Translations under genes and position numbers: made by a program | Notes under the pieces: model-generated | What the model was told of the DNA's origin: nothing | Database searches by the model: none | Seen by the model: the letters and a program-made list of their open reading frames with translations, nothing else | In this document: piece after piece, positions 7,740-41,560 of the stretch | How the letters are laid out: each line of letters begins with the position of its first letter | Numbering within the stretch: the stretch's first letter is position 1 | Source of the DNA: Escherichia coli | Lineage (GTDB): Bacteria; Pseudomonadota; Gammaproteobacteria; Enterobacterales; Enterobacteriaceae | Assembly (NCBI RefSeq): GCF_002854065.1 | Contig: NZ_CP024147.1 | DNA length: 64,000 bases | Reading direction: 5' to 3' (one strand)

Positions 7740-8801
7740 TTATTCTTGCGCTATTTGCCCATCGGGCCAGGCGTGGATCACGGCTTTGATCAGCGTCGCC
7801 AGTGGAATGGCGAAGAATACGCCCCAGAATCCCCACAAACCACCGAAGATCACCACCGATAAAATAATCACCAGCGGATGCAGGTTAACCGCTTCGGAGA
7901 ACAACACCGGTACTAACAGGTTGCCGTCCAGCGCCTGAATAATCAGATACACTGCGAAGCAGCTCCAGAATTCCGTGCCTGCACCAAACTGGAATAGCGC
8001 CACGCCAACCACCGGAATGGTCACCACAAATGCGCCAATGTACGGAATAAGTACCGAGAAGCCGACCAGCACCGCCAGCAGCAGCGAATAGTTCAGCCCA
8101 AAGAGCAAGAACCCCAGCCAGGTGGCGATCCCCACCACGATCATCTCCAGCACTTTGCCGCGGATATAGTTGGTGATTTGTTGATTCATCTCCTTCCACA
8201 CCTGTCCTGCCAGTCCACGGTTACGCGGCAGCACCCGGCGAACGGCATTCAGCATCTGCTCTTTGTCTTTCAGCAGGAAGAAGACCATCAATGGCACCAG
8301 CACCAGATAGACAGCTATGGTCAGCAAACCGACCAGCGAGGCGAGGGAAATTTTCACCACCGAATCGCCCATGGTCAGCATCCGACTGCGCATATTTTCG
8401 GCCATTGCATCAATAATGCCCGCATCCATTAACGCCGGATAGCGGCGCGGCAACGTGGCGGCAAAGTCAGAAAGCTTATTGAGCATCCCCGGCATATCGC
8501 GGATTAAGTAGATGCCCTGTTGCCAGGCGATAGGCAGTACCACGAACGCCATCAGTAGCAATATACCGACAAAAACCACCAATACAATCGACGTCGCCCA
8601 GCGGCGGGAGCAGCCAATAGATTGCAGGCGCACGGTTGGCCATTCCAGCAAATAGGCCAGCACAATAGCCACCAGCAACGGAGCAAGCAGGCCACTAAAG
8701 AAAAAGATAATGCCAAATCCGGCAACTAAAATAACCAGCAAGGCAATCGCTTCCGGGTCGCTAAAACGGCGGCGATACCATTGCATCAACATTTCGAGCA
8801 T
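7740..8801 (-). CDS. perM: Putative permease PerM (YfgO; AI-2E transporter family)
   Basis: 353 aa membrane protein, convergent with focB. Confidence 0.85.
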   Translation of the reverse strand: MLEMLMQWYRRRFSDPEAIALLVILVAGFGIIFFFSGLLAPLLVAIVLAYLLEWPTVRLQSIGCSRRWATSIVLVVFVGILLLMAFVVLPIAWQQGIYLIRDMPGMLNKLSDFAATLPRRYPALMDAGIIDAMAENMRSRMLTMGDSVVKISLASLVGLLTIAVYLVLVPLMVFFLLKDKEQMLNAVRRVLPRNRGLAGQVWKEMNQQITNYIRGKVLEMIVVGIATWLGFLLFGLNYSLLLAVLVGFSVLIPYIGAFVVTIPVVGVALFQFGAGTEFWSCFAVYLIIQALDGNLLVPVLFSEAVNLHPLVIILSVVIFGGLWGFWGVFFAIPLATLIKAVIHAWPDGQIAQE

Positions 8802-8954
8802 AAAGACCTTCCCTGAACCTCAAGAGCGGGATTGCGATCCGCAATTGTATCGAAATGTCACAAAAAAGACTTCGCTTTTTATGACGGATTCAGGAAACTG
8901 AAAAGTCATTTGAGTGGGCTAATCTTCGCCGTTACACTCAAAGGCGGCGCGGTG

Positions 8955-8982
8955 GGAACGATATTTCACAGTATCGGTCAAA
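8955..8982 (+). promoter_or_regulatory. Sigma-E-type promoter upstream of bepA (-35 GGAACG, 16 nt spacer, -10 TCAAA)
   Basis: GGAAC at 8955-8959 and TCAAA at 8978-8982, about 30 nt upstream of the bepA ATG; bepA is a known sigma-E regulon member. Confidence 0.5.
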
Positions 8983-9013
8983 TGACTATCTTCAGAAATA
9001 CAGGATAGAGGTT

Positions 9014-10477
9014 ATGTTCAGGCAGTTGAAAAAAAACCTGGTTGCAACCCTCATTGCTGCTATGACCATTGGTCAGGTAGCCCCGGCGTTTGCCGACAGC
9101 GCAGACACCTTGCCGGATATGGGAACCTCCGCAGGAAGCACGCTTTCCATTGGTCAGGAAATGCAGATGGGCGACTATTATGTCCGCCAGTTACGCGGCA
9201 GCGCGCCGTTAATTAATGACCCGCTGTTAACGCAATATATTAATTCGCTGGGGATGCGTCTGGTTTCGCATGCCAATTCGGTTAAGACACCGTTTCATTT
9301 CTTTCTGATCAACAACGACGAAATTAACGCCTTTGCTTTCTTTGGCGGCAACGTGGTGCTGCACTCTGCCCTGTTCCGTTATTCCGATAACGAAAGTCAA
9401 CTGGCTTCAGTTATGGCGCACGAAATCTCCCACGTCACCCAACGTCACCTGGCGCGAGCGATGGAAGATCAGCAGCGCAGCGCGCCGCTGACCTGGGTCG
9501 GCGCGTTAGGTTCTATTTTACTGGCGATGGCCAGTCCGCAGGCGGGGATGGCGGCGCTGACCGGTACACTGGCGGGAACGCGCCAGGGGATGATCAGTTT
9601 CACCCAGCAAAATGAACAGGAAGCGGACCGCATTGGTATTCAGGTGCTGCAACGCTCAGGATTCGATCCGCAGGCGATGCCGACCTTCCTCGAAAAATTA
9701 CTCGATCAGGCGCGTTACTCCTCCCGTCCGCCGGAAATTTTATTGACTCACCCGTTGCCGGAAAGTCGTCTGGCAGATGCCCGCAACCGTGCTAATCAGA
9801 TGCGCCCGATGGTGGTGCAGTCGTCGGAAGATTTCTATCTGGCGAAAGCGCGCACACTGGGGATGTATAATTCCGGACGTAACCAGCTCACCAGTGATTT
9901 GCTGGATGAATGGGCGAAAGGAAACGTTCGTCAGCAACGAGCGGCGCAATATGGTCGTGCTTTACAGGCGATGGAAGCCAATAAATACGACGAGGCGCGA
10001 AAAACGCTGCAACCGTTACTGGCGGCAGAACCTGGCAACGCATGGTATCTCGATCTGGCTACCGATATCGATCTTGGGCAAAACAAAGCCAATGAGGCGA
10101 TCAATCGCCTGAAAAATGCCCGTGATTTGCGCACCAATCCGGTGTTGCAGCTCAACCTGGCAAACGCTTATCTGCATGGCGGTCAACCACAAGAAGCGGC
10201 CAATATTCTCAATCGCTACACTTTTAACAATAAAGATGACAGCAACGGCTGGGATTTACTGGCACAGGCGGAAGCCGCGCTAAATAACCGCGATCAGGAA
10301 CTGGCTGCGCGAGCAGAAGGTTATGCGCTCGCCGGGCGACTCGATCAGGCCATTTCGCTGTTGAGTAGCGCCAGTTCGCAGGTGAAATTAGGCAGCCTGC
10401 AACAAGCGCGTTACGATGCGCGCATCGACCAGTTGCGCCAGCTGCAGGAACGCTTTAAGCCTTATACCAAGATGTAA
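9014..10477 (+). CDS. bepA: Periplasmic beta-barrel assembly-enhancing protease BepA (YfgC), M48 metalloprotease with TPR domain
   Basis: 487 aa; signal peptide; HEISH zinc motif; TPR-like C-terminal region. Confidence 0.9.
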
Positions 10478-10497: not shown

Positions 10498-10857
10498 ATG
10501 ACCAAACAGGTAAAAATCTACCATAACCCACGCTGTTCAAAGAGCCGGGAAACGCTGAACCTGCTGAAAGAAAACGGCGTGGAGCCAGAAGTGGTGCTCT
10601 ACCTTGAGACACCCGCCGATGCGGCAACGCTGCGCGATTTGCTGAAAATGCTGGGGATGAATAGCGCCCGTGAATTGATGCGCCAGAAAGAGGATCTTTA
10701 TAAAGAACTGAACCTGGCTGACAGTTCGCTTAGCGAAGAGGCGCTGATTCAGGCAATGGTGGATAATCCGAAGCTAATGGAGCGCCCGATTGTGGTCGCG
10801 AATGGCAAAGCGCGGATTGGTCGTCCACCGGAGCAGGTACTGGAAATCGTGGGTTAA
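10498..10857 (+). CDS. yfgD: ArsC-family reductase-like protein YfgD
   Basis: 119 aa, N-terminal conserved Cys (NPRCSKSR). Confidence 0.85.
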   Translation: MTKQVKIYHNPRCSKSRETLNLLKENGVEPEVVLYLETPADAATLRDLLKMLGMNSARELMRQKEDLYKELNLADSSLSEEALIQAMVDNPKLMERPIVVANGKARIGRPPEQVLEIVG

Positions 10858-40939: not shown

Positions 40940-41560
40940 TCAGATGGACAAATTATTAATTTTCATCTGCATCATTTCGCTCAGTGCAGGGGTAACATCG
41001 CTTTTAACGCCTGCCTCCCATGCACTACGCGCACCTTGCTTATCACCTTTGCTCAGCAATGCTTCACCACGCAGGTCGGCAACAATGGCAGCCCACCCTT
41101 CACCTTTGATGGTATCAAGGGTTTTCAGCGCGGCATCAGCCTGCTTGAGCTGTACCTGAACGCGAGCAAGACGCAGATTTATCACGGCTTTGAGATTTTC
41201 ATCGCTCGTATCTGCCAGCCCCTGTTGTAACTGGGCGGCAGCTTTCTCTAGTTCATTTTTGTCAACAAATTGCTGCGCAAGTTCCAAAGAAGCCAGCGCA
41301 CCATAAGTATTTTTATTTTCAGCAGCAAATTTTTCCGCCGCCGGGATGCTATCCGGTTTGCCTTCGCTCACTGCGGTAACCGCATTTTGATAGGCAAGAG
41401 AAGCGGAGCGTGCAGAATCAACCTGATGGCTGTTCCAGTAGCGCCAGCCAATCAGTGCGCCAACGCCCAAAATCACCCCAACAGCCAGTGCTTTGCCATT
41501 TTCAGCAAAAAAGCGTTTAACCGCTTCTACCTGGTCGTTTTCGTTCTCGTAAATTTCCAC
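40940..41560 (-). CDS. yfgM: Ancillary SecYEG translocon subunit YfgM (TPR-like, N-terminal membrane anchor)
   Basis: 206 aa. Confidence 0.9.
   Translation of the reverse strand: MEIYENENDQVEAVKRFFAENGKALAVGVILGVGALIGWRYWNSHQVDSARSASLAYQNAVTAVSEGKPDSIPAAEKFAAENKNTYGALASLELAQQFVDKNELEKAAAQLQQGLADTSDENLKAVINLRLARVQVQLKQADAALKTLDTIKGEGWAAIVADLRGEALLSKGDKQGARSAWEAGVKSDVTPALSEMMQMKINNLSI

Follow-up and report, generated by a model that had tools for sequence, protein, structure and literature searches.

Sequence, geometry, and conservation point to a sigma-E promoter upstream of bepA-yfgD in Escherichia coli, shared with strain K-12

Positions 8955-8982 of the 64-kb stretch of Escherichia coli DNA analyzed here (the window) very probably hold the promoter from which sigma-E (RpoE, an extracytoplasmic-function sigma factor) transcribes bepA-yfgD, as in E. 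coli K-12. The bepA sigma-E promoter is already known, and the one in the window is not a variant of it. A previous reading of the DNA letters alone (the sequence-only reading) had assigned bepA (yfgC) to the sigma-E regulon, and we found that assignment supported by the sequence, spacing, and position of the promoter, by its identity to K-12 and its conservation across genera, by a mapped transcription start at A8988, and by the reported induction of the operon. BepA is a periplasmic, BAM-associated protease/chaperone that acts as a quality-control factor for the assembly of outer-membrane proteins and LptD, and its control by sigma-E is textbook knowledge.

Results

Sequence and Geometry of the Site

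The plus strand of the window reads GGAACG (8955-8960), a 16-nt spacer (ATATTTCACAGTATCG, 8961-8976), and GTCAAA (8977-8982), which is the GGAACG-N16-GTCAAA arrangement that the sequence-only reading had reported at 8955-8982. The bepA ATG lies at 9014, and the end of the -10 element lies 31 nt upstream of it, in good agreement with the earlier figure of about 30 nt. The bepA open reading frame (487 aa; 9014-10477, plus strand) carries a RefSeq annotation in E. coli genomes that are 100% identical over the region; it is co-transcribed with the arsC-like gene yfgD (10498-10857, plus strand) as the operon b2494|b2495, and the surrounding gene order is hyfR-focB-yfgO(-)-bepA-yfgD-hda(-)-uraA(-).

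We compared the site part by part to the sigma-E promoter model of Rhodius et al. 2006 (PMC1312014), which is based on 28 starts located by 5' RACE. The model has a -35 motif of GGAACTTTT, a -10 motif of (T/C)GGTCAAAA, a "strongly preferred" spacing of 16 nt between GGAACTT and TCAAA, a purine start after a 5/6-nt discriminator, and 30 nt of generally A/T-rich DNA upstream. For membership, we looked for a -35 resembling GGAACTT with its GAAC core intact and for a GGAACTT-to-TCAAA distance of 15-19 nt, ideally 16, and we treated an A/T-rich UP region ahead of the -35 as typical of sigma-E promoters, not as required.

The -35 element, GGAACGA (8955-8961, plus strand), resembles the consensus GGAACTT and keeps the GAAC core: it matches GGAAC at 5/5 positions and the full consensus at 5/7, with the T-tract missing. 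Counted by the GGAACTT/TCAAA convention, the spacer (8962-8977, plus strand) has exactly the preferred 16 nt, and its last three bases, CGG (8975-8977), are part of the extended -10, in which CGGTCAAAT (8975-8983) matches eight of the nine positions of (T/C)GGTCAAAA. The -10 element proper, TCAAA (8978-8982, plus strand), is a 5/5 match. It is followed by a discriminator, TGACT (8983-8987, plus strand), whose 5 nt are within the preferred length, and then by a purine, A8988, which sits 5 nt after TCAAA with an uncertainty of 1 nt that stems from the coordinate convention discussed below. The 30 nt upstream of the -35 (8925-8954), at ~35% A+T, are GC-rich and do not form an A/T-rich UP region. 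The promoter is kept upstream of the orthologous gene in related genomes (see below), and, as far as sequence can tell, the site has everything that defines a sigma-E promoter except the optional UP region. The term "near-consensus" in the sequence-only reading is therefore apt for the core (GGAAC, CGGTCAAA, and a spacer of 16) and inapt for the -35 T-tract (GGAACGA versus GGAACTT) and for the upstream A/T-rich region. Loss of the -35 T-tract has been associated with promoters that are active only at high polymerase concentration (Rhodius and Mutalik). Because the site has neither this tract nor an A/T-rich UP element, we expect the promoter at 8955-8982 to be functional but weak.

The window contains the exact 12-base pattern a single time, versus 0.02 matches expected from shuffled sequences, and the 10-base core, GGAAC-N18-TCAAA, likewise has one exact match in the 64 kb (0.16 expected by chance). 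When one mismatch is allowed, the core has seven matches in the window against 4.5 expected, which is no enrichment over chance. The bare or loosely defined motif is weak evidence alone and is not significant; significance comes from an exact match in the right place and orientation before a gene of the sigma-E regulon. Cross-species conservation and a mapped transcription start bring the site well beyond what chance would produce.

Transcription Starts Upstream of bepA

Transcription starts were taken from Supplementary Data 2 of the SMRT-Cappable-seq study (PMC6131387), in which strain MG1655 was grown to late log in M9 and in rich medium and starts were mapped to NC_000913.3. For b2494|b2495 (bepA-yfgD), the table gives forward starts at 2615987, 2616025, and 2616067 (PMC6131387). 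Judged from the entries for thrL (147) and degP (180843), forward coordinates in this table appear to be one below the 1-based position: adding 1 places both of these starts on A residues, and the A start of degP then falls exactly 5 nt past its TCTGA -10, with GGAACTT 16 nt upstream. The offset between window and K-12 numbering is 2607080, such that the bepA ATG at 9014 corresponds to K-12 2616094. On the 0-based reading, the three bepA starts fall on A8908, G8946, and A8988, all of them purines.

A8988 (plus strand; K-12 2616068, table value 2616067) is the very position predicted by sigma-E geometry, and the alternative reading of the coordinates shifts the start by 1 nt only. The capped 5' end mapped in K-12 is therefore where the sequence-only reading would have it, 5 nt past the motif and not elsewhere, although additional starts exist. 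The start was recorded in unstressed cultures, which fits basal sigma-E activity and is no proof of dependence. In the accessible part of the 2016 Cappable-seq supplements (PMC4782308), there is no entry at 2616045 or at 2616066-2616070.

From A8988 to the base before the ATG runs a 5' leader of 26 nt (8988-9013, plus strand), which contains a purine-rich ribosome-binding region, ACAGGATAGAGG (9000-9011, plus strand); the ACAGGAcAGAGGTTATG portion of the leader is kept across the Enterobacteriaceae. A known riboswitch or small RNA was considered as an explanation and rejected, since an Rfam search returned no RNA family in 8600-9200.

G8946 (table value 2616025) is a K-12 start located 7 nt downstream of TACACT (8933-8938), which together with TTGAGT (8910-8915) and a 17-nt spacer makes up an upstream promoter of the sigma-70 type (8910-8946, plus strand). 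Of 21 Enterobacteriaceae loci, 19 retain this hexamer in the form TA(C/A)ACT, at a 17-nt spacing from a TTxxCA-like hexamer. Because this sigma-70-type site has both a mapped K-12 start and a conserved hexamer and spacing, we conclude that bepA has tandem housekeeping and stress promoters. The sigma-E site is not the sole bepA promoter: two starts, at 8908 and 8946, lie upstream of it, and sigma-E is therefore not required for all bepA transcription.

Two further observations concern the same intergenic region. The A8908 start (table value 2615987) has no convincing hexamers upstream beyond a weak GAAACT at 8895-8900. An inverted repeat, ATTGCG-atc-CGCAAT (8831-8845), sits at the K-12 start of yfgO (2615915, reverse; window ~8835) and could be an operator for this divergent gene.

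Response of the Operon to Sigma-E

In Rhodius et al. 2006 (PMC1312014), yfgC (bepA)-yfgD is a member of the sigma-E regulon. Overexpression of sigma-E increased yfgC 2.4-fold and yfgD 1.5-fold (Bury-Moné et al. 2009), and we read the "Rh" superscript that both genes carry in the table of that study as meaning that they were also found by Rhodius et al. Published work calls bepA-yfgD sigma-E-dependent, with Lacoux et al. cited, and describes it as the "bicistronic operon bepA-yfgD." Nothing relevant was returned when full texts were searched using the promoter sequence or the names yfgCp and bepAp. The induction data apply at the level of the operon and are not specific to the A8988 start; secondary citations, taken with the geometry of the site, suggest that A8988 in particular is the sigma-E-dependent start. 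The induction of yfgC, at 2.4-fold, is modest, and we counted this against the sigma-E reading.

Variation within E. coli

Across the 212-bp yfgO-bepA intergenic region, K-12 differs from the window at one base only, at +5, where the window has T8992 and K-12 has C. The promoter is fully identical in the two, with identity spanning at least -198 to +4. The region is also 100% identical to that of O157:H7 and other strains, and it is carried by 5,425 of 5,426 complete E. coli genomes, which bears out the remark in the sequence-only reading that this is canonical core. The divergent E. coli strains that we sampled show the changes C8906T, C8928T, C8967A, and T8992C (+5), and among these strains no change was found in GGAAC or GTCAAA. 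C8967A, a spacer SNP of O111 strain 8234, is tolerated; it probably explains the ~570 genomes without an exact 28-mer shared with 8950-8993. At +5, K-12, E. albertii, and Citrobacter all have C, so that the T of the window (T8992) is probably derived. With T at this position, the sequence forms the TATCTT hexamer picked up in our sigma-70 scan.

The one exception among the 5,426 complete genomes is E. coli A24, from an armadillo (NZ_CP028751.1; locus L122, 2976-3056), which has a deletion of ~180 bp equivalent to window positions ~8778-8960. The deletion takes out the 5' end of yfgO together with both of the upstream bepA promoters and the -35 of the sigma-E site; the spacer and GTCAAA remain, with yfgO codons fused to the spacer. 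A24 is also without hyf-focB beside yfgO. The deletion may represent a promoter knockout that arose naturally, or else an error of assembly. Elsewhere, the window from ~9000 to 41000 is not collinear with K-12: yfgM lies ~10 kb further from bepA than it does in K-12, and this extra ~10 kb implies an insertion in the lineage of the window.

Conservation across the Enterobacteriaceae

To obtain a phylogenetic footprint, 120 loci were retrieved from one-genome-per-species contigs by means of a degenerate pattern for a BepA protein motif; start codons were located by tblastn, and the upstream regions were then scanned for GGAAC/TCAAA. A match at no fewer than nine of the ten core positions, located 29-34 nt before the ATG, was present in 16 of the 20 non-E. 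coli Enterobacteriaceae loci, with a spacer of 16-17 nt (mostly 16). In these loci, matches of this kind had a background frequency of 1.6e-4 per position, or ~0.0016 expected per locus in a 10-nt positional window. The matching taxa include Escherichia albertii, Citrobacter, Leclercia, Enterobacter, Pseudocitrobacter, and Siccibacter, as well as Kluyvera, Superficieibacter, Klebsiella, Pluralibacter, and others.

Information content was calculated from 19 Enterobacteriaceae species in an alignment anchored on the -10. Mean values per column were 1.42 bits for GGAAC and 1.69 bits for TCAAA, compared to 0.39 bits for the first 12 columns of the spacer, 1.19 bits for its last four (the cGG of the extended -10), 0.27 bits for the 40 nt upstream, and 0.57 bits for the 20 nt downstream. 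Spacer length was 16 in 17 of the 19 species and 17 in the other two, and the distance from the motif to the ATG was also kept across species. A spacer that is free in sequence and fixed in length indicates two sigma contact sites, not residual similarity.

Three other explanations of the site were weighed, and even taken together they retain only a small part of the probability. The best of them, itself very unlikely, holds that what is conserved is a housekeeping promoter for sigma-70 that overlaps the site, TTCACA-N16-TATCTT (8965-8992), and that the likeness to a sigma-E promoter is incidental. This arrangement scored 9/12 matches in a consensus scan, and bepA is indeed expressed without stress. 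However, a single occurrence, where shuffled sequences lead one to expect 0.4, is not significant; its TTCACA -35 falls in the spacer, which varies freely between species; the final T of TATCTT (8992) is a C in K-12, E. albertii, and Citrobacter, where the near-invariant last base of the -10 is thus gone; and K-12 has no start listed ~7 nt downstream of TATCTT, near 8999. For these reasons we rejected TTCACA-N16-TATCTT as the conserved feature.

It is less probable still that the motif is a chance match and that bepA is transcribed from the two upstream starts only. Starts are mapped at 8908 and 8946, and the one-mismatch core does occur at chance frequency, but the window has no second exact match, and the one at 8955-8982 is followed exactly 5 nt later by a capped 5' end. 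Across genera, the motif keeps both its sequence and its distance from the ATG, while the spacer sequence does not stay the same, and the bepA-yfgD operon responds to sigma-E. Equally improbable is that the two conserved blocks form a transcription-factor binding site and are not sigma contacts: conservation alone cannot separate a bipartite operator from promoter elements, but the GGAAC and TCAAA blocks do not repeat each other in direct or inverted form; each corresponds to a different element of a sigma-E promoter, the preferred 16 nt separate them, and a start lies 5 nt downstream; and degP and bamB have the same geometry.

bepA Loci beyond the Enterobacteriaceae

Sites related to the sigma-E promoter of the Enterobacteriaceae, of the form (A/C)GAACyyT...GTC(A/T)AA, can be recognized in more distant Enterobacterales, namely Edwardsiella, Yersinia, Serratia, Hafnia, and Tatumella. 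They read AGAACTCTT...GTC(A/T)AA or GTCTTA in Edwardsiella, Yersinia, Serratia plymuthica, and Hafnia, and CGAACCT...GTCAAA in Tatumella. A simple scan of the same position found no site in Pantoea, Erwinia, Pectobacterium, Brenneria, Rahnella, or the Morganellaceae.

The Morganellaceae loci (L086, L007, L068, and L004/L111/L027, representing Proteus, Providencia, Arsenophonus, and Photorhabdus) have a -10-like hexamer, TATCAT, that precedes the bepA ATG by ~50-75 nt; nothing resembling a sigma-E motif was found in that interval. TTGACA is present 17 nt upstream of TATCAT in Proteus and Arsenophonus; Providencia has a weaker TTAACA, and Photorhabdus has ATCATA only, with no clear -35. These arrangements suggest promoter turnover at the Morganellaceae bepA loci.

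BepA-like loci of betaproteobacteria (L009, L110, L020, L047, L045, L104, L053, L067, L058, L113, L101, L063, L082, and L019) carry a strongly conserved TATCATAGCAyC directly before the ATG, as defined by automatically assigned start codons of homologues that are 30-43% identical to BepA. The -10-like TATCAT is only 6 nt before the start codon, which suggests that the bepA-like mRNA of these species is leaderless. In several of the betaproteobacterial loci, TCATA is also preceded by GGAACTT at a distance of 16-17 nt.

It is possible, although less likely than not, that the regulation of bepA has been rewired across the Proteobacteria while the gene itself stayed unchanged. In such a picture, the Enterobacteriaceae may combine, in tandem, a conserved sigma-70-type promoter (TA(C/A)ACT, start 8946) with a deliberately weak sigma-E promoter (no T-tract, no UP), with constitutive expression as the baseline and a slight increase under stress, and the Yersiniaceae, Hafniaceae, and Edwardsiella may use a stronger-looking GAACTCTT -35. 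The sigma-E site of the Morganellaceae appears to have been replaced by a near-consensus sigma-70 promoter, and the betaproteobacterial homologues, with TATCATAGCAyC-ATG, look leaderless. If this were true, the feature in the window would stay a known promoter, and only the comparative picture would be new.

Discussion

During envelope stress, unassembled outer-membrane proteins cause proteolysis of the anti-sigma factor RseA, which sets sigma-E free. We propose that free sigma-E joins core RNA polymerase and that, at the bepA promoter, its region 4 would contact GGAAC (8955-8959) and its region 2 would contact and melt GTCAAA (8977-8982), across the optimal 16-nt spacer; sequence, spacing, and conservation support recognition of both elements by the sigma-E holoenzyme. 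Initiation would take place at A8988, the start mapped in K-12, and would yield a bepA-yfgD mRNA with a 26-nt leader that encodes BepA and YfgD. The upstream sigma-70-type promoter (start G8946) probably supplies basal expression, and this would explain why sigma-E induces the operon only ~2.4-fold. The sigma-E promoter most likely adds a modest, stress-dependent boost (~2.4-fold on overexpression) to constitutive expression, given that its -35 has no T-tract, that no A/T-rich UP element precedes it, and that a conserved sigma-70-type promoter lies upstream.

The site serves as a positive control for motif-based sequence reading, and it marks the region as canonical E. coli core whose envelope-stress wiring is intact. 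Our analysis adds mildly to this: bepA has three starts, of which the sigma-E promoter, intrinsically weak by its appearance, is one, and comparison across genera reveals exactly which of its bases are constrained.

Compared to the K-12 yfgC (bepA)-yfgD sigma-E promoter, the one in the window differs in nothing functional and shares the flanking genes yfgO, bepA, yfgD, and hda; the window represents another E. coli lineage. The K-12 sigma-E promoter of degP (htrA), whose start is listed in the same Cappable-seq table as that of bepA, likewise has a GGAAC -35 core, a 16-nt spacer, a 5-nt discriminator, and an A start. Unlike bepA, degP has the full GGAACTT -35, A/T-rich upstream DNA, and a TCTGA -10. 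The -10 of bepA (CGGTCAAA) is better than that of degP, whereas bepA is without the T-tract and UP element, and degP is induced ~56-fold versus 2.4-fold for yfgC (Bury-Moné et al. 2009).

The window also contains a candidate sigma-E site upstream of bamB-der, GGAACTT-N16-ACAAA (41285-41258, minus strand), with a 5-nt discriminator and an A start at 41252. The K-12 bamB-der start (2638975, reverse) coincides with this A, exactly 5 nt after ACAAA. Rhodius et al. 2006 (PMC1312014) mention a sigma-E promoter of yfgL (bamB) as a prediction only, and the candidate site fits that prediction. The candidate bamB-der site has the opposite balance to that of bepA, with a perfect -35 and an imperfect -10 (ACAAA), and it is intragenic, inside yfgM, whereas the bepA site is intergenic. 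Both belong to the theme of BAM and outer-membrane-protein assembly.
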